A stretch of 64,000 nt of DNA from Escherichia coli O127:H6 str. E2348/69. GTDB lineage: Bacteria > Pseudomonadota > Gammaproteobacteria > Enterobacterales > Enterobacteriaceae. Shown here piece by piece: positions 2,292 to 9,082 of the stretch. The translations under genes and the position numbers were made by a program. Every line of letters starts with the position of its first letter. The stretch's first letter is position 1. The notes beneath the pieces are model-generated. The model saw only the letters and a list, made by a program, of their open reading frames with translations. It made no database searches and was not told the origin of the DNA. Location: NCBI RefSeq assembly GCF_000026545.1, contig NC_011601.1. The stretch is one strand, 5' to 3'.

Positions 2292-2307
2292 TGGCATAGC
2301 TCCTGCA
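2292..2307 (+). promoter_or_regulatory. Sigma-54 (RpoN) -24/-12 promoter, TGGCAT-N5-CTGCA, for the transporter/dehydrogenase genes
   Basis: GG at 2293-2294 and GC at 2305-2306 with exact 10-nt spacing; about 40 bp upstream of the transporter start; a sigma-54 activator is encoded nearby (4921-6279). Confidence 0.55.
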
Positions 2308-2347: not shown

Positions 2348-3847
2348 ATGTCATCAATATCCCATGGCGCACCACAAAAGCGTCGAATTATCCCTAATCC
2401 CGGCCTGTGGTTGGCGATCATTGCCGGAATTATTATTACCCTTCTGCCACTGGGCGATACCTTGCCCGTCGCCGGACAAAATATGATCGCCATTCTGGTG
2501 TTTGCCATTATTGTCTGGATCAGCGAAGCGATGGATTACACCGCCAGTGCAATTGTTATTTCCGCACTGATTATCTTTATGGTTGGTTTTGCCCCGGATA
2601 TGAATCACCCGGACACGATCCTTGGCACCGCGAAAGCGCTGAAAATGACTCTGTCGGGTTTTTCTAATTCTGCTCTGGCGCTGGTGGCAGCAGCAATGTT
2701 TATCGCGGCGGCAATGACCATTACCGGGCTGGATAAACGCATTGCGCTGTTTACTATGTCGAAAATAGGTGCCAGCAGCCGCAGCATTATTATCGGTGCC
2801 ATTGTGGTGACCATCGTCCTGAGCCTGGTCGTACCCAGTGCCACTGCCCGTACGGCTTGCGTGGTGCCGATTATGATGGGGGTCATTGCGGCATTTAAGG
2901 TGGATAAACATTCACGTTTAGCGGCGTCAATGATGATTGTTATCGCCCAGGCGACCAGTATCTGGAAAGTTGGTATTCAAACTTCGGCGGCGCAAAACCT
3001 GCTTTCTATCGGTTTTATCAATAAAACTTTCGGCGCCGGGCATTCTGTCAGCTGGCTTGACTGGCTGTTAGCGGGCGCGCCCTGGAGCCTCACCATGTCG
3101 GTGATCCTCTATTTCCTCGCACGTAAATTGTTGCCGCCAGAAACGGAAGCTGTTGAAGGGGGGAGCGAGGCCATTAAAAAAGCACTCGCAGAGTTAGGGC
3201 CAACCACCGGTAAAGAAAAACGCTTGATCGGTATTTCGCTGTTGTTACTGCTCTTTTGGTCTACTGGCGGAAAATTGCACAGTATTGATACCACCTCTGT
3301 CACCCTTGCCGGACTGGCGATTATGTTGCTGCCAGGCATCGGTGTAATGAGCTGGAAAGAGGTCGAAAAACGTGTGCAGTGGGGCACGTTGCTTATGTTT
3401 GGTATTGGTATCAGCCTGGGGTCCACGTTGCTTGATACACAGGCAGCTTCATGGATGGCGAACTATGTGGTGAAAGGTTTTGGTCTCGATGGCTTGCCAT
3501 CATTAGCCATCTTCGCGATTCTCGCCGCTTTCTTGATAATCATTCACCTGGGGTTTGCCAGTGCCACTGCGCTAACTGCCGCATTGCTGCCCATCCTGAT
3601 TAGCCTGTTAAGCAGTCTGCCGCCAGAACTCGGCGTTAACCCGGTCGGCATGACCATTCTGCTCGCCTTCAGTGTCAGTTTTGGCTTCATCCTGCCGATT
3701 AACGCGCCACAAAATATGGTGTGTATGGGTACGGATACCTTCACGCCACGCCAGTTTACCCGTGTGGGACTGTACCTGACGGTGATCGGCTACCTGTTGT
3801 TGCTACTGTTTGCCGCCACCTGGTGGAAAATTTTAGGTCTAATGTGA
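2348..3847 (+). CDS. Anion transporter, probably divalent anion:Na+ symporter (DASS/CitT-like) family; candidate alpha-ketoglutarate/dicarboxylate importer
   Basis: About 499 aa, highly hydrophobic with many predicted TM helices; ATG at 2348 preferred over in-frame GTG at 2342 (AGG RBS at 2340-2342); family assignment from overall resemblance, not a search. Confidence 0.75.
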   Translation: MSSISHGAPQKRRIIPNPGLWLAIIAGIIITLLPLGDTLPVAGQNMIAILVFAIIVWISEAMDYTASAIVISALIIFMVGFAPDMNHPDTILGTAKALKMTLSGFSNSALALVAAAMFIAAAMTITGLDKRIALFTMSKIGASSRSIIIGAIVVTIVLSLVVPSATARTACVVPIMMGVIAAFKVDKHSRLAASMMIVIAQATSIWKVGIQTSAAQNLLSIGFINKTFGAGHSVSWLDWLLAGAPWSLTMSVILYFLARKLLPPETEAVEGGSEAIKKALAELGPTTGKEKRLIGISLLLLLFWSTGGKLHSIDTTSVTLAGLAIMLLPGIGVMSWKEVEKRVQWGTLLMFGIGISLGSTLLDTQAASWMANYVVKGFGLDGLPSLAIFAILAAFLIIIHLGFASATALTAALLPILISLLSSLPPELGVNPVGMTILLAFSVSFGFILPINAPQNMVCMGTDTFTPRQFTRVGLYLTVIGYLLLLLFAATWWKILGLM

Positions 3848-3858
3848 GGAAACCAACG

Positions 3859-4932
3859 ATGTCATTACAAATTGCTGTTGAAAAAGTGCGTTGGTTAGCT
3901 GCCGGGCTGCTGGAACTTAATGGCTGTGATGCCGATATCGCTCAGGATGTGGCGGAACATATGATTGAAGCGGAACGTTATGGTTTTGCCAGCCACGGCG
4001 TCACGCTGCTACCGAAATATCTGGAAAATATCGCTCGTGGCGATGTAACCGCGAATGCCCGCCCGGAATGCTTAACAAGTGAAGGTAATTTACAACGTTT
4101 TCATGCCCACAATGGCTTTGGTCAACACGCCGGAAAAGTGGCGGTAAATGCTGCCATCGAACAAACAAAACACCGCGGTTTTTGCCTGTTAACGTTGTGC
4201 CATGCGCATCATTTAGGGCGTATGGGGCATTACGGGCAAATGGTTGCTGATCAAGGCCTGGCGATGCTGGCCATGAGTAACGTCACCGGGCGTCCGGCAC
4301 TGGTCGCCCCGTGGGGCGGTGCGGAACCGCGTATGACCACTAACCCTTTCTGCTTTGCCTGGCCGTTCAGTGATGGGCGTCCGCCGATTCTGGTTGATTT
4401 TGCCACCAGTAGCATGGCGCTAAATAAAGCACGGGTAATGTCGTCCACCGGGAAGCAGGCCGCGCCGGGACAATTGATCGATGCACAGGGGAATCCAAGC
4501 AATGATCCTGGGGTGTTATTCAGCAATCCTCCAGGGGCGTTACTGCCATTTGGTGAGCATAAAGGATTTGGCCTGGCACTGATGATTGAAATGATGGCGG
4601 GGATCTTATCTGGTGGTGACACGATCGCCGAAGATCATCAGACGGATGGATCTGCGCATAATCATCTTTTTGCGTTGATTATCGATCCTGATCAATTCAC
4701 CGATCTGGCAGGGGAGAAAGGGCAGTTCTTTGCGGATTATCTGTTAGCTACGCAGCCTCAACCTGGCGGCAATCCGGTGATTTACCCCGGTATGCCAGAA
4801 GCTGCCAACCGGGAACGCAATGCGAAGATGATTACGATCCCGGTATCATTCTGGTCCTGGGTAGTTGAACATTACGCCCGCAAAGGTATCGATTTGGGGT
4901 TACATCCTCAGGAATCAGCATTAGCTGGATGA
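3859..4932 (+). CDS. Ldh2-family (malate/L-lactate/ureidoglycolate dehydrogenase-like) NAD(P)-dependent oxidoreductase
   Basis: 357 aa from ATG 3859, with GAGGAA RBS 9 nt upstream and 11 nt after the transporter stop; the track ORF 3721-4932 has an N-terminal extension overlapping the transporter and is rejected; conserved HGxxxxPKY-type region (FASHGVTLLPKY). Confidence 0.75.
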   Translation: MSLQIAVEKVRWLAAGLLELNGCDADIAQDVAEHMIEAERYGFASHGVTLLPKYLENIARGDVTANARPECLTSEGNLQRFHAHNGFGQHAGKVAVNAAIEQTKHRGFCLLTLCHAHHLGRMGHYGQMVADQGLAMLAMSNVTGRPALVAPWGGAEPRMTTNPFCFAWPFSDGRPPILVDFATSSMALNKARVMSSTGKQAAPGQLIDAQGNPSNDPGVLFSNPPGALLPFGEHKGFGLALMIEMMAGILSGGDTIAEDHQTDGSAHNHLFALIIDPDQFTDLAGEKGQFFADYLLATQPQPGGNPVIYPGMPEAANRERNAKMITIPVSFWSWVVEHYARKGIDLGLHPQESALAG

Positions 4933-6279
4933 TTCTGGTCGATAAACTTGCGGTTGAATCTGATGTTTGTTGAGTTTGTCATATAAAGTCTTGCGCGGCA
5001 GCTGTAATAGCCGCGCTGTCAAACTGACCTGGCCTTCCGTTTGTCGCAGCATATCTTCGATTAACTTTTTCTCGAAAGCATCAATGCAGGCGGTAAGGCC
5101 ACTCTCTTCTTGCTGAGTCATTGGTACTGGCTGGTGGTGGGTCAGTAAACCGAGAACAAAACGCTCTGCATTGTGTTTAAGTTCACGTACATTGCCAGGC
5201 CAACTTTGTGACTGCAACCAGGCCAGTAACATGGGAGAAATATCAGGCAGAGGACGATTATATTTTTGTGCCGCCTGACTGGCGAACCAGTAAAACAGTT
5301 CAGGGATATCTTCTCGTCGTTGGCGTAGAGGTGGAATATTCAGGCTAACCACATTCAGACGATAATAGAGATCGAGACGAAACAGATGTTCTTCGCTGCG
5401 ACGCAGTAAATCTTCCTTGGTCGCTGCAATAACACGGCAATTCACCGGAATTAATTGATTGGCACCTAATCGTTCAATGGTTCTTTCCTGCAATACACGT
5501 AGCAGTTTTACCTGCATTCCTGATGGCATTCCCTCTATTTCATCGAGAAATAACGTACCACCATTTGCATGTTCAATTTTTCCAATACGCTTTTTAACCG
5601 CACCGGTAAATGCGCCCGCCTCATGACCAAATATTTCGCTTTCAAACAACGTTTCTGGTAAGCCTGCACAGTTTAAGGCAACAAACTGCCCCTGACGGCG
5701 GGTACTCCAGTGATGCAGCATTCTGGCGACGACTTCTTTACCACAACCTGTTTCACCATAAATAAGGACATCGGCACCGGTATCTGCGACATTAAGGATC
5801 ATTTTACGCAGTTGTTGCATCTGCGGACTACGACCAATCAGCACCGGGCCATTTTCCTGTTGCAGATTCGCCAGTAATTGCTGATTTTCTAAAACCAATC
5901 GCCGTTTTTCTACCGCTCTGGCAATAATACTCAATAATTTATCTGAGCTACTTGGTTTCTCAATGAAATCGAATGCACCATTACGCATGGCATCCACCGC
6001 CATTTCCACGTCACCGTGTCCGGTAATTAAAATAACCGGAATTTTGCTATCCATTTCGTTGATGTAACTGAGGAGCTCTAGTCCTGATATTCCAGGTAAC
6101 CTGACATCGGTCAGTATAATAATGTTGGCCTGACTTTGAATAAGGGGAATACTGTGTTCTGCATCGCAACAGGAAATAACACGATAACCAGCCAGCGTGA
6201 GCGTTTGTTCACAGGCAAAACGTACATCGTCACTATCCTCAATATAAACTATAGTAATTTCACTGGATTTATTATTCAT
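4921..6279 (-). CDS. kguR: Sigma-54-dependent response regulator (NtrC family: receiver + AAA+ sigma-54 activator + HTH); consistent with KguR
   Basis: 452 aa; receiver domain with conserved D (IIILTDVRLPG); Walker A GETGCGKE; GAFTGA sigma-54 contact motif; C-terminal HTH; stop overlaps the 3' end of the convergent dehydrogenase gene. Confidence 0.8.
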   Translation of the reverse strand: MNNKSSEITIVYIEDSDDVRFACEQTLTLAGYRVISCCDAEHSIPLIQSQANIIILTDVRLPGISGLELLSYINEMDSKIPVILITGHGDVEMAVDAMRNGAFDFIEKPSSSDKLLSIIARAVEKRRLVLENQQLLANLQQENGPVLIGRSPQMQQLRKMILNVADTGADVLIYGETGCGKEVVARMLHHWSTRRQGQFVALNCAGLPETLFESEIFGHEAGAFTGAVKKRIGKIEHANGGTLFLDEIEGMPSGMQVKLLRVLQERTIERLGANQLIPVNCRVIAATKEDLLRRSEEHLFRLDLYYRLNVVSLNIPPLRQRREDIPELFYWFASQAAQKYNRPLPDISPMLLAWLQSQSWPGNVRELKHNAERFVLGLLTHHQPVPMTQQEESGLTACIDAFEKKLIEDMLRQTEGQVSLTARLLQLPRKTLYDKLNKHQIQPQVYRPESSS

Positions 6280-8092
6280 GTTCTTCTCCCCATTCAGGCC
6301 AGGTTAATGTCATTACTGCGCCGCCTTCAGGATGATTACTGGCGTGGAGTGCGCCGTTCGAATTTCGGACAATTTCGCTGACTATTGCCAGTCCCAACCC
6401 CATTCCTCTACGTTTAGTGGTAAAAAATGGTTCAAATATGCGATCGACAACTTCAGGTGCAAAACCGCCACCGCTGTCTTTAATGGTAATAATAACTTTG
6501 TTATTTGCCTGGCGAATGGCGATATCCAGTCGTTTGTAAGAGCTACCTTCCATAGAATCTAAGGCGTTGCTAATTAAATTACTGAATATCTGTTCAAGAC
6601 CGAGCTCATCGCAATTGACAAATAACGGCATGGATGGGGCTTTTATTCGTCGCTCAATATTATTTTTCTCCATGCTGTGATTAAGTAACGCCACGGCGCT
6701 ATACATCACTTTGATGACATCGGCAGAACCTTTAGGTACGCGATGGCGCGAGGCAAATGCTTTAAGTTCGGAAATGAGCTGCGTCATCCGCTCAATCACT
6801 GAAATAATGTGTTTCAGATTCTGTTCAACCTGCGGATACATCTCTTTTTTTAGCATAGTACGCGCGTTATCAGTAAGTGCGTGAATGGCGGCTAACGGTT
6901 GATTTTGTTCATGGGCAATTTCGGTTGCCATCTGTCCAAGCGCCGCCAGTTTGCTGGACTCTGCCAGTTCACTACGCGTAATTTGTAATACTTGTTCAGC
7001 CTGACTGCGCTCTTTTATCTCCTGTATTAATTTTTGATTGATCAATTCCAGGGCAGATGTACGCTCTTTAACCTGTTTCTCTAATGTTTCATTCGCCAGT
7101 GTTAATAATTGTTGTGCATGAGATCGCATTCTCCAGTATTTAATAAATAACAAAAACAGCAGGTAAATAATTAGCGTAATGACTAACGAAATAGCCCATG
7201 ACCAGTACAGGTTATCTAAGGGGACCATAATTGTCATTTTCCAGTTAAATTCTGGAATGGCTATTTGTTGCGTATAATATTGCGGGAATAAACAGAGTTG
7301 TTCTTTTTTATCTTTCAGGAAAGTAAAATTGCTCACGGTATAACAGGGATAATAATCCGCCGGTAAAAGATTGTCGAGACTATATTGGCGGGTAGATTGT
7401 AGTTTTTGTTTTGCCTGAACAGGTAACGGTTGCAGTGTTCGCATTCGCCATGGCGATTTTGAACTTAAAAATATAATCCCATGTTCATCATTCACGATAA
7501 TATTTTCAGGACCTTCGGCCCATGCTTTTTCAATTTCATTAAGACTTATTTTTACTACTACAACACCGACAATTTTTCCTTTATCTTTTATACTTGTAGA
7601 GAGGAAGAATCCCGGTGTATTCGTAGTGCTACCAATACCGTAAAAGCGTCCATTTAAGCCAGACATGGCGTGTTTATAATAGGGGCGATAGCTATAATTT
7701 TGCCCTACATAGCTGCCGGGGTCCTGCCAGTTGCTAGAAGCGATGGCCTTACCTTGGGTATCCAGAATAAATATTGCTGCGGTTTTGAGTTGAGTATTGA
7801 AATGTGCAATTCGTTGATTGAGTTCGCTGGACATCATATCGTCAGGCGTAATTACCGCCTGACGGATGATATGGTCTGTTGAGAGCATATAGGGTAAAAC
7901 ATAAAATTGCTCGATGGTGGAATATAATGTGGACTTATACATTTCAAGCCGCATTTTATCGGTACCGGACAAGGTATTAAAACGCAAGTGCAAAAAAGCG
8001 ATTGAAACCGCGAGCATGATAAGAAAAAGTGAAATGCTTGTAATGTGAAATCGCCATTTGTTCTTAAATATATAATTCCACGATATTTTCAT
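6272..8092 (-). CDS. kguS: Membrane sensor histidine kinase with periplasmic sensing domain; consistent with KguS
   Basis: 606 aa; two TM segments flanking a roughly 260-aa periplasmic region; H-box (ATEIAHEQNQPL) and HATPase_c motifs; 8-nt overlap with the downstream regulator gene. Confidence 0.8.
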   Translation of the reverse strand: MKISWNYIFKNKWRFHITSISLFLIMLAVSIAFLHLRFNTLSGTDKMRLEMYKSTLYSTIEQFYVLPYMLSTDHIIRQAVITPDDMMSSELNQRIAHFNTQLKTAAIFILDTQGKAIASSNWQDPGSYVGQNYSYRPYYKHAMSGLNGRFYGIGSTTNTPGFFLSTSIKDKGKIVGVVVVKISLNEIEKAWAEGPENIIVNDEHGIIFLSSKSPWRMRTLQPLPVQAKQKLQSTRQYSLDNLLPADYYPCYTVSNFTFLKDKKEQLCLFPQYYTQQIAIPEFNWKMTIMVPLDNLYWSWAISLVITLIIYLLFLLFIKYWRMRSHAQQLLTLANETLEKQVKERTSALELINQKLIQEIKERSQAEQVLQITRSELAESSKLAALGQMATEIAHEQNQPLAAIHALTDNARTMLKKEMYPQVEQNLKHIISVIERMTQLISELKAFASRHRVPKGSADVIKVMYSAVALLNHSMEKNNIERRIKAPSMPLFVNCDELGLEQIFSNLISNALDSMEGSSYKRLDIAIRQANNKVIITIKDSGGGFAPEVVDRIFEPFFTTKRRGMGLGLAIVSEIVRNSNGALHASNHPEGGAVMTLTWPEWGEEHE

Positions 8093-8272
8093 TCATCATC
8101 CATTGAATGCATTTATATTTATCATCAGTATATTCCCTGAACAATGTTTGCGAGAACCAAAAGAGTGCCATTGTGTGAATGTGTAAGCAGAATAACCGTG
8201 GCAATGTGTGGTTTATCGCACAGGTATTCCAAATGTGATCATGCTCTTTTTATGTGACAAATCCGCAGATAA

Positions 8273-9082
<810 letters not shown>

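Follow-up and report, generated by a model that had tools for sequence, protein, structure and literature searches.

In natural "excludon"-type loci, antisense transcription enters the 3' end of a facing gene, and untranslated antisense RNA is a standard target of Rho in E. coli. Natural bidirectional terminators are expected to have A/U tracts, as is generally known for intrinsic terminators. In a synthetic E. coli system, a gene was repressed by antisense transcription entering its 3' end, chiefly through collisions (Brophy & Voigt 2016, PMC4731013). In collision-driven bidirectional termination, which involves convergent, simultaneously active units with a hairpin in either nascent RNA, the nascent-RNA stem-loop was needed to fix the collision positions in vitro (Wang, Watters, Ju & Liu, bioRxiv 10.1101/2022.10.23.513370). 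Rho-dependent 3' ends have been described in which a stem-loop without a U tract lies past the last stop codon of the operon and is followed by sequence richer in C than in G (Dar & Sorek 2018, PMC6061677). Surveys of prokaryotic convergent overlaps, in which two genes of opposite orientation have their final codons in common, counted 58 (Lillo & Krakauer 2007, PMC2174442) and 75 (Huvet & Stumpf 2014, PMC4161906) such pairs in E. coli K-12, attributed most convergent overlaps to stop-codon mutation, and found phase 123:321 in 33% of convergent overlaps of at least 5 nt.

The KguS/KguR alpha-ketoglutarate island (c5032-c5041) has been described in the uropathogenic E. coli strain CFT073, in which c5039 and kguR were studied experimentally (Cai et al. 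2013, PMC3694859; 2017, PMC5318444; 2021, PMC8716947). The island is induced by alpha-ketoglutarate under anaerobiosis (PMC3694859; PMC8716947), kguS and kguR are co-transcribed, and KguR activates its own operon as well as the c5038 operon; in a kguR mutant, the alpha-ketoglutarate utilisation group, including kguS, was down by a mean log2 of approximately 8 (PMC8716947). The window analysed here, a 64,000-nt stretch of the enteropathogenic E. coli O127:H6 strain E2348/69 (contig NC_011601.1), contains the same locus (c5038-c5041). All 13 of the CFT073 published primers that were mapped matched the window exactly, and the gene order, lpdA-sucC-sucD-DASS-Ldh / kguR-kguS adjoining aphA, agreed with the published locus. 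The genes considered here are as follows.

2348 to 3847, plus strand: c5038, DASS-family alpha-ketoglutarate transporter (Pfam Na_sulph_symp, E 2.8e-117)
3859 to 4932, plus strand: c5039, Ldh_2-family oxidoreductase and last gene of the sigma-54 operon (Ldh_2, E 3.8e-93)
4921 to 6279, minus strand: kguR (c5040), sigma-54-dependent response regulator (Response_reg, Sigma54_activat and HTH_8, E 1e-67)
6272 to 8092, minus strand: kguS (c5041), dCache histidine kinase (ORF, annotation and Pfam)

Both c5039 and kguR are genuine genes, with Pfam matches and orthologues in many genera, and the domain content bears out the sequence-only reading, which had named them as a dehydrogenase and a response regulator. 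In c5039 the Ldh_2 domain spans residues 6-332 of 357, leaving a 25-residue tail outside the Pfam domain, and the HTH_8 match stops at residue 438 of 452 in KguR, leaving a 14-residue tail. The kguS and kguR genes overlap by 8 nt on the same strand. The locus was also found on two records labelled as plasmids, one of 27 kb (typed as non-mobilizable) and one of 834 kb, which are probably chromosomal fragments.

The two facing operons carry the following control elements, the KguR sites being given without a strand.

2212 to 2229: KguR binding site (UAS) of the c5038 promoter, TGTGCGGAAAACCGCGCA, by pattern match
2292 to 2307, plus strand: sigma-54 -24/-12 element of the c5038-c5039 operon, TGGCATAGCTCCTGCA, TGGCAT-N5-CTGCA, by motif match
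8205 to 8222: KguR binding site of the kguSR promoter, TGTGTGGTTTATCGCACA, by pattern match

The element at 2292-2307 is the predicted sigma-54 promoter of c5038, as its position agrees with a transcription start published at 30 nt before the start codon and with the requirement for RpoN demonstrated in CFT073 (PMC5318444); the earlier proposal that a sigma-54 promoter drives the transporter operon was thus correct. The sequence TGTGCGGAAAACCGCGCA is identical to the CFT073 site in Table 3 of PMC8716947, and the two KguR sites are 5,993 bp apart, a spacing that is equal in CFT073 coordinates. The form TGTG[CT]G[GA]-N4-[CT]C[GA]CACA occurs at both promoters and at the orthologous loci, including those of Vibrio. 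Because KguR activates both operons, the facing units are co-induced, so that a putative mutual interference is possible. The facing genes are not opposed in function or expression: they belong to one pathway and both are activated by KguR.

The two operons meet at a single feature.

4921 to 4932, both strands: shared 3' end, TTAGCTGGATGA, 12 nt common to the c5039 and kguR ORFs

In the plus-strand frame these nucleotides read L-A-G-stop, with the TGA at 4930-4932 closing the coding sequence 3859-4932; in the minus-strand frame they read S-S-S-stop, with the TAA at 4923 to 4921 closing the ORF 4921-6279. Each stop codon thus lies inside the facing ORF on the opposite strand, the codon boundaries of the two frames coincide (phase 123:321), and the NCBI PGAP annotation of the identical genome agrees with both ORF ends, confirming the earlier claim that the convergent genes share their last 12 nt. 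The suspicion that one of the stop codons is not a real gene end, because the sequence contains an error or a frameshift or because an ORF was called wrongly, found no support and can be given almost no weight. Of the 1045 complete E. coli genomes with the junction region, 1042 match it at 99% identity or more; other genera, assembled independently, also keep convergent overlaps, and a stop codon leaves no ambiguity about where a gene ends. Moreover, the deletion primers in the literature were fitted exactly to the two stop codons, although the word "overlap" occurs nowhere in the text of Cai et al. 2013 (PMC3694859).

Comparison of 14 island loci revealed that a convergent overlap of variable length was kept in 12, measuring 12 nt in seven loci, 4 nt in three, 11 nt in one and 44 nt in one. 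In the remaining two loci, of Vibrio type, the genes are instead separated by 504 or 345 nt, and in this spacer a 14-bp hairpin and TTTTTAT directly 3' of the oxidoreductase stop codon form a canonical terminator. The overlapped residues belong to non-conserved C-terminal tails outside the Pfam domains of both proteins, and they vary among orthologues (..LAS / ..LAG in locus L013 versus ..LAG / ..SSS in E. coli). As in the surveyed overlaps, movement of the stop codons is the origin indicated by an overlap that lies in variable tails and differs in length among orthologues. Selection may explain the zero-length spacer of all 12 Enterobacterales-type islands, but so may common descent alone. 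More distant regulator homologues, at approximately 60% identity (L077-L079), do not belong to the island; Glu or Lys replaces Arg423 in them, and at the hairpin described below they form no more than a weak inner stem. The overlap is one of six convergent pairs in the first 49 kb of the window. With dozens of such overlaps known in E. coli, the c5039/kguR overlap is an ordinary layout that matters little in itself. It shows no essential difference from the surveyed overlaps; here the partners are a regulator and the last gene of an operon that it activates, and the two are co-induced.

As in those overlaps, any terminator signals must sit in coding sequence. A terminator scan called no intrinsic-terminator-like site on the plus strand from 3392 to 8386 or on the minus strand from 5435 to 2173. 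The earlier statement that no terminator separates the genes holds, if trivially, as overlapping ends leave nothing between them, and for the same lack of intergenic space there is no bidirectional intrinsic terminator of the kind made up of an intergenic G+C hairpin with A and U tracts. Folding and base composition pointed to five features within the two coding sequences.

4531 to 4673, minus strand: C-rich, G-poor stretch with C/G up to 2.4, candidate Rho utilisation (rut) site
4808 to 4844, minus strand: stable hairpin inside c5039, -18.2 kcal/mol, no U tract (folding)
4939 to 4985, plus strand: weak A+U-rich hairpin (4939-4973, -8.5 kcal/mol) and a T-rich run (folding)
4993 to 5016, no strand assigned: G+C hairpin GCGCGGC-N10-GCCGCGC in kguR (folding and frozen synonymous sites)
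4998 to 5127, plus strand: mildly C-rich, G-poor stretch, candidate rut site (C/G ratio)

The element at 4939-4985 would be a poor intrinsic terminator at best: it was not called by the scan, and its structure is not conserved among orthologues. The minus-strand hairpin at 4808-4844 begins at the 77th base past the kguR stop codon and is a weak candidate for the 3' stem-loop of the kguSR mRNA. Hairpins occur at a similar position in most orthologues; RNAalifold found no shared base-pairing for the c5039 3' region among them, none of 101 synonymous columns in c5039 was constrained, and hairpins of this strength are not unusual in the G+C-rich orthologues. A conserved minus-strand hairpin in this region was therefore rejected. 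On the plus strand, the C/G ratio was 1.2-1.6 in five 78-nt windows starting at 4998-5050, with a peak of 1.64 at 5011-5088; this bias directly after the G+C hairpin is modest, values of 2.0-2.4 being reached only from approximately 5466. Folding of the whole region was unremarkable (z = 0.34 on the plus strand and -1.53 on the minus strand), and no Rfam family matched within 4500-5500 at E values up to 1.

Since no terminator precedes 4921, plus-strand transcription must extend into kguR in antisense for at least some distance. The published c5039/c5040 junction RT-PCR amplicon maps to 4791-5092; its authors concluded from glycerol-grown cells, without added alpha-ketoglutarate as inducer, that the operons are separate (PMC3694859). 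We take this conclusion to mean that no RT-PCR product was obtained, which would limit read-through. The sequence-only reading, which had transcripts of the sigma-54 operon entering the regulator gene in antisense, stands as far as some antisense entry into kguR is concerned, and a long read-through is disfavoured by the RT-PCR conclusion. The published kguR qPCR amplicon maps to 4991-5093, within the zone that read-through from c5039 could cover, and a strand-specific measurement of kguR would be advisable.

The G+C hairpin at 4993-5016 covers the kguR codons A422 R423 ... L427 P428 R429. It begins at the 61st base past the c5039 stop codon and 72 nt upstream of the kguR stop codon, and neither strand carries a U tract, the tails being TGTCAAAC on the plus strand and AAGACTTT on the minus strand. 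Because every pair is G-C, it folds equally well on both strands. Its energy is -13.3 to -15.4 kcal/mol in E. coli, and the core stem reaches -22.6 kcal/mol in orthologues. Across nine kguR orthologues, 155 columns with four- or six-fold degenerate codons and an invariant amino acid contained only five invariant codons, four of which are stem codons (permutation P of about 5e-5). No frozen synonymous cluster was found in c5038, c5039 or kguS, making the kguR hairpin the sole cluster over the four genes. On this comparison of sequences, the hairpin is under synonymous-site selection. Covariation was limited to one CG to AU exchange and three terminal G-U pairs, with 10 of 500 shuffles matching the observed score; G-U at the terminal pair would be tolerated only with the minus strand as the folding strand, and the covariation does not settle the strand. 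A codon-degenerate scan of metagenome contigs, intended as a larger and unbiased sample, returned 59 contigs, all E. coli-like and comprising only four distinct 60-mers; P428 was changed from CCG to CCA, giving a weaker stem, in eight of them. A KguR binding site was rejected as the identity of the hairpin, as its arms lack TGTG/CACA and stand 12 nt apart, whereas true sites have a 4-nt spacer.

The explanation that we favour, and judge probable from the sequence, is that the tail-to-tail overlap arose by stop-codon drift in a compact, horizontally spread island without a spacer, and that each operon ends inside the facing gene through the action of Rho. RNA polymerase moving past c5039 would lose its ribosome at 4932 and continue antisense into kguR, where it would pass the U-less G+C hairpin and the mildly C-rich stretch; Rho would release the transcript within roughly 100-300 nt, and exonuclease trimming back to the hairpin would leave c5039 with a 3' UTR of approximately 85 nt. 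The kguSR transcript would behave likewise in the opposite direction within c5039, with a possible end near the hairpin at 4844-4808, and the mature mRNAs of the two operons would be complementary over roughly 200 nt. Termination within the partner gene is thus the expected behaviour at this junction. A stable U-less stem-loop downstream of the last stop codon, followed by sequence with more C than G, matches the published Rho-type 3' ends (PMC6061677); the difference is that this stem-loop lies within a facing coding sequence and is kept by synonymous-site selection, the C-over-G bias is modest, and the dependence on Rho is putative. When phosphorylated KguR turns on both operons, polymerase collision or cleavage of duplex RNA may occur, which we expect to have only minor consequences rather than to form a feedback loop by design.

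The sequence-only reading had gone further and suggested that the overlap is a feedback arrangement. As a selected negative-feedback device, read-through from the sigma-54 promoter would lower full-length kguR mRNA by head-on collision or RNase III and thereby damp positive autoregulation. This reading is consistent with the absence of a terminator before or at the junction, with induction of both units by the same activator, which makes them active together, with the zero spacer throughout the Enterobacterales-type islands, and with the repression obtained in the synthetic system, as the geometry here also permits interference and formation of an RNA duplex. However, no dedicated antisense promoter is present as it is in the synthetic antisense and excludon loci, and the neighbours serve one pathway and are co-activated. 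Neither the length nor the phase of the overlap is conserved, the tails of both proteins vary, and the Vibrio-type islands function with their genes separated by a spacer that holds a strong terminator. Overlaps of this kind are routine, KguR activates both operons, and untranslated antisense RNA would ordinarily be a target of Rho. In addition, the authors of the junction RT-PCR concluded that the operons are separate, and the large effect of the kguR mutation points to strong induction despite the layout (PMC8716947). A selected feedback device is thus unlikely, and the suggestion is unsupported by these comparisons.

Two further explanations concern the hairpin. It may serve kguR itself, through mRNA stability, processing, translation pacing near the helix-turn-helix region or a site at the DNA level, and be unrelated to the overlap. 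The Arg423 codon is xGG in all 14 island loci, whereas xGG makes up 10-45% of Arg codons in these genes; the Vibrio-type loci retain the pairing in a weaker hairpin by one compensatory change, CGG:CCG to AGG:CCT; and the tolerance of terminal G-U pairs only if the minus strand folds is also in keeping with such a role. As the Vibrio-type loci keep this hairpin despite a strong terminator that blocks plus-strand RNA, its original role was probably linked to kguR and not to the c5039 transcript end. On the other hand, the stem is clearly stronger in overlap-type loci (-12 to -22.6 kcal/mol) than in Vibrio-type loci (about -10 kcal/mol), the sequence points to no mechanism and matches no Rfam family, and a DNA site would not be one for KguR. 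A role in kguR itself, apart from the overlap, is possible but less likely than not. Alternatively, the hairpin could be a programmed pause and collision site that holds up polymerases arriving from both sides and thereby gives the two operons a defined end point. An all-G-C stem under synonymous-site selection, its rank as the strongest or among the few strong plus-strand hairpins in several orthologues, the co-induction of the two units and the in vitro need for a nascent-RNA stem-loop (bioRxiv 10.1101/2022.10.23.513370) would suit such a site. In contrast to the hairpins of collision-driven termination, however, this one is not intergenic, lacks the flanking A or U tracts of a bidirectional terminator and lies upstream of the kguR stop codon; its use in the minus direction would truncate kguR, leaving transcripts without a stop codon. 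The Vibrio-type loci have a weaker version even though polymerases from the two sides should not meet there, and the stem-weakening CCA occurs among the E. coli-like contigs, making a programmed collision site improbable.

Were the hairpin nonetheless an element dedicated to 3'-end formation or collision, the co-induced operons could share their ends without a spacer, and target-operon output would be coupled to kguR mRNA integrity, placing a negative loop on positive autoregulation; we consider this a long shot. Whatever its role, the kguR hairpin is a clean case of a regulator gene whose synonymous sites encode a nucleic-acid structure. Should it define where the mRNA of the facing operon ends, it would show how compact islands dispense with intergenic terminators.

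The oxidoreductase gene c5039 and the response-regulator gene kguR (c5040) share their last 12 nt, TTAGCTGGATGA at 4921-4932, which read Leu-Ala-Gly-stop on the plus strand and Ser-Ser-Ser-stop on the minus strand; the two frames have common codon boundaries. Both stops were read in the sequence, and because the 3' ends of ORFs are unambiguously set by stop codons, the overlap is real, as the sequence-only reading had claimed. The gene identities that it gave were also correct.

Features of the locus (genes from the NCBI annotation of the E2348/69 genome and Pfam; aphA from the annotation; other evidence in brackets)
upstream of 2153-2173: sucC-like and sucD-like genes
2153-2173, called on both strands: strong hairpin AAGGGAGC-N5-GCTCCCTT then TTTTTTA (terminator scan)
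2212-2229: KguR binding site, c5038 promoter (match to published CFT073 site)
2292-2307: sigma-54 -24/-12 element of the c5038 operon (motif match)
2348-3847, plus: DASS-family transporter (c5038)
3859-4932, plus: Ldh_2-family oxidoreductase (c5039)
4673-4531, minus: clearly C-rich stretch, C/G up to 2.4 (base composition)
4844-4808, minus: hairpin, -18.2 kcal/mol, beginning at the 77th base past the kguR stop (folding)
4921-6279, minus: sigma-54-dependent response regulator (kguR)
6272-8092, minus: dCache histidine kinase (kguS, c5041)
8205-8222: KguR binding site, kguSR promoter (match to published CFT073 site)
beyond kguS: aphA

We confirmed that the locus is the published KguS/KguR alpha-ketoglutarate island of uropathogenic CFT073, since the published CFT073 primers (13 of 13 exact matches), the spacing of the two KguR sites (5,993 bp in both strains) and the -24/-12 element all agree. 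The window matches E. coli O127:H6 E2348/69 at 100% identity; of 5426 complete E. coli genomes 1045 have the island region, 1042 of them with at least 99% identity. According to the 2013 abstract (PMC3694859), intestinal pathogenic E. coli lack the island; here the host is an enteropathogenic strain. Two records filed as plasmids, NZ_CP048308.1 (27 kb) and CP054241.1 (834 kb), contain the junction region at 99.6-99.8% identity; both were typed as non-mobilizable and probably represent pieces of a chromosome or a secondary replicon of very large size. Genes are closely packed throughout the island, with a gap of 11 nt between c5038 and c5039 (3848-3858) and a same-strand overlap of 8 nt between kguS and kguR (6272-6279), and the terminator after the sucD-like gene stands between the c5032-c5037 operon and the c5038 promoter.

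The -24/-12 element agrees with the published c5038 transcription start, 30 nt upstream of the gene, and with its RpoN dependence (PMC5318444), which bears out the sigma-54 promoter named from sequence. KguR activates the c5038 operon and its own kguSR operon, binding at 8205-8222 (PMC8716947). The c5038 site (2212-2231) ends in CCGCGCATA in E2348/69 versus CCGCGCACA in CFT073 and E. albertii, a one-base change by which the terminal CACA of the palindrome is lost. A sigma-54-like motif with an imperfect -12 part, TGGCACTCTTTTGGTT, was found at 8155-8170 on the minus strand, 63 nt upstream of the kguS start; the KguR site lies only about 35 nt upstream of it, unusually close for an enhancer-binding protein. 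No statement of the kguSR promoter type was found in the KguS/KguR papers.

Overlaps of this kind are well known: 58 (PMC2174442) or 75 (PMC4161906) convergent overlapping pairs have been counted in E. coli K-12, both studies ascribing them mainly to stop-codon movement, and the phase 123:321 accounts for 33% of convergent overlaps of at least 5 nt (PMC2174442). In the first 49 kb of the window one of six convergent pairs overlaps and the other five are spaced by 34-98 nt; a simple scan called a terminator-like hairpin in just two of the five spacers. The c5039/kguR overlap is thus an unremarkable example. We compared the junction in 14 loci of this island type.

Junction types among the 14 loci
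12-nt overlap: E. coli, E. albertii, three Citrobacter, Klebsiella indica, one metagenome contig (L013)
4-nt overlap (TTAA type): Entomohabitans, Gibbsiella, one metagenome contig
11-nt overlap: Pectobacterium
44-nt overlap, usual kguR stop lost: Brenneria
spacer of 504 or 345 nt: two Vibrio-type loci

Among the Enterobacterales loci only the missing spacer is conserved, whereas the sequence, length and phase of the overlap vary; this pattern is the signature expected of drift, not of a sequence-specific device. The shared tails extend past the Pfam domains (the last matched residue is 332 of 357 for Ldh_2 and 438 of 452 for HTH_8) and their residues vary, ..LAS/..LAG in L013 versus ..LAG/..SSS in E. 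coli. The Vibrio-type loci have a canonical terminator (14-bp stem plus TTTTTAT) 17-26 nt past the oxidoreductase stop and a strong U-less hairpin 64-70 nt past the kguR stop. The latter (minus strand; 6440-6510 in L008, and in L016) is 29-42 nt long, at -19.6 to -23.6 kcal/mol, and resembles a protective stem-loop of the Rho type for kguSR mRNA. An Ldh_2 homologue with 65% identity occurs in another module (L015, 625-4981), comprising a transporter, an RraA-like protein, Ldh_2 and a convergent LysR-type regulator 22 nt off; the transporter and Ldh_2 pair has therefore been reused with other regulators.

The terminator scan called no hairpin-plus-U site near the junction on either strand, in line with the sequence-only reading, so plus-strand RNA must run on into kguR. 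On this path the first strong structure is GCGCGGC-N10-GCCGCGC at 4993-5016, which begins at the 61st base past the c5039 stop and has no U tract; C/G is 1.2-1.6 in the 78-nt windows that follow. In E. coli, Rho-dependent transcripts have their 3' ends just past stable stem-loops that lack a U tract, and the rut site follows directly (Dar & Sorek, PMC6061677); the plus-strand anatomy is alike, although the C/G bias here is modest. For kguSR, the 4844-4808 hairpin may be a weak candidate 3' element. Hairpins at a similar position are present in most orthologues, with no base pairs in common among them; no synonymous-site constraint was seen in c5039 (0 of 101 columns), and hairpins as strong are common in G+C-rich species.

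From RT-PCR on cells grown in glycerol with no alpha-ketoglutarate inducer added, Cai et al. (2013, PMC3694859) concluded that c5038-c5039 forms an operon by itself and that the island has three. The junction primers map to 4791-4810 and 5073-5092, so that the amplicon covers both hairpins. We take the authors' operon conclusion to mean that this reaction gave no product; if so, both 3' ends would lie inside 4791-5092, in indirect agreement with a model in which each operon ends within the facing gene, probably by Rho. The published kguR qPCR amplicon corresponds to 4991-5093, in the zone of possible c5039 read-through, and non-strand-specific kguR values could therefore be inflated under induction.

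The sequence-only reading had further proposed a feedback arrangement. Since KguR activates both operons, the facing units are on simultaneously, and polymerase collisions and an RNA duplex of about 200 nt between the transcripts would be physically possible; in synthetic work, antisense transcription entering the 3' end of a gene can repress it (PMC4731013), and the site of head-on collision can be set by a hairpin (bioRxiv 10.1101/2022.10.23.513370). However, no result of the sequence comparison calls for a regulatory role, the junction is variable among relatives, the Vibrio layout has a spacer and a strong terminator, and induction in vivo is strong. We therefore argue that any regulatory effect of the overlap is small, and a designed feedback device seems quite unlikely; of the original interpretation, the genes, the sigma-54 promoter and the missing terminator stand, and the feedback is unsupported.

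The codon pattern of kguR indicates that the 4993-5016 hairpin is under selection. In alignments of nine Enterobacterales-type loci, 155 columns of four- or six-fold degenerate codons encode the same amino acid throughout; in only 5 of them is the codon itself invariant, and four of the five are stem codons: A422 (GCG), R423 (CGG), L427 (CTG) and P428 (CCG). The permutation P for this cluster was about 5e-5 (3.5e-4 when the set was thinned to six loci), and it was the only cluster among the 9 of 580 such columns that were invariant in c5038, c5039, kguR and kguS together (kguS, 0 of 110). All 14 island loci encode Arg423 by an xGG codon, a type used for only 10-45% of the arginines in these genes. 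Every locus of the overlap type has a stem of -12 to -22.6 kcal/mol; in the Vibrio-type loci the stem persists in weaker form, at about -10 kcal/mol, with a compensatory AGG:CCT in one, and distant non-island homologues have Glu or Lys in place of Arg423 and the inner stem only. A synonymous CCG to CCA change at P428, which breaks one stem pair (-15.4 to -10.0 kcal/mol), occurs in 8 of 59 E. coli-like metagenome contigs (L021 and seven others); these form an E. coli-like sub-lineage, a natural variant usable for testing the hairpin.

The hairpin had no Rfam match, and site comparison ruled it out as a KguR binding site. Because every stem pair is G-C, either strand can form the structure equally well; terminal G-U pairs point weakly to the minus strand, and the Vibrio forms do not settle the matter. 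Because the weaker Vibrio form sits behind a strong terminator, we think that the structure probably served kguR itself at first; after spacer loss it could have become stronger, or been put to new use as the 3' stem-loop of c5039 mRNA. This hairpin in the synonymous sites of kguR is the only element here worth an experiment.
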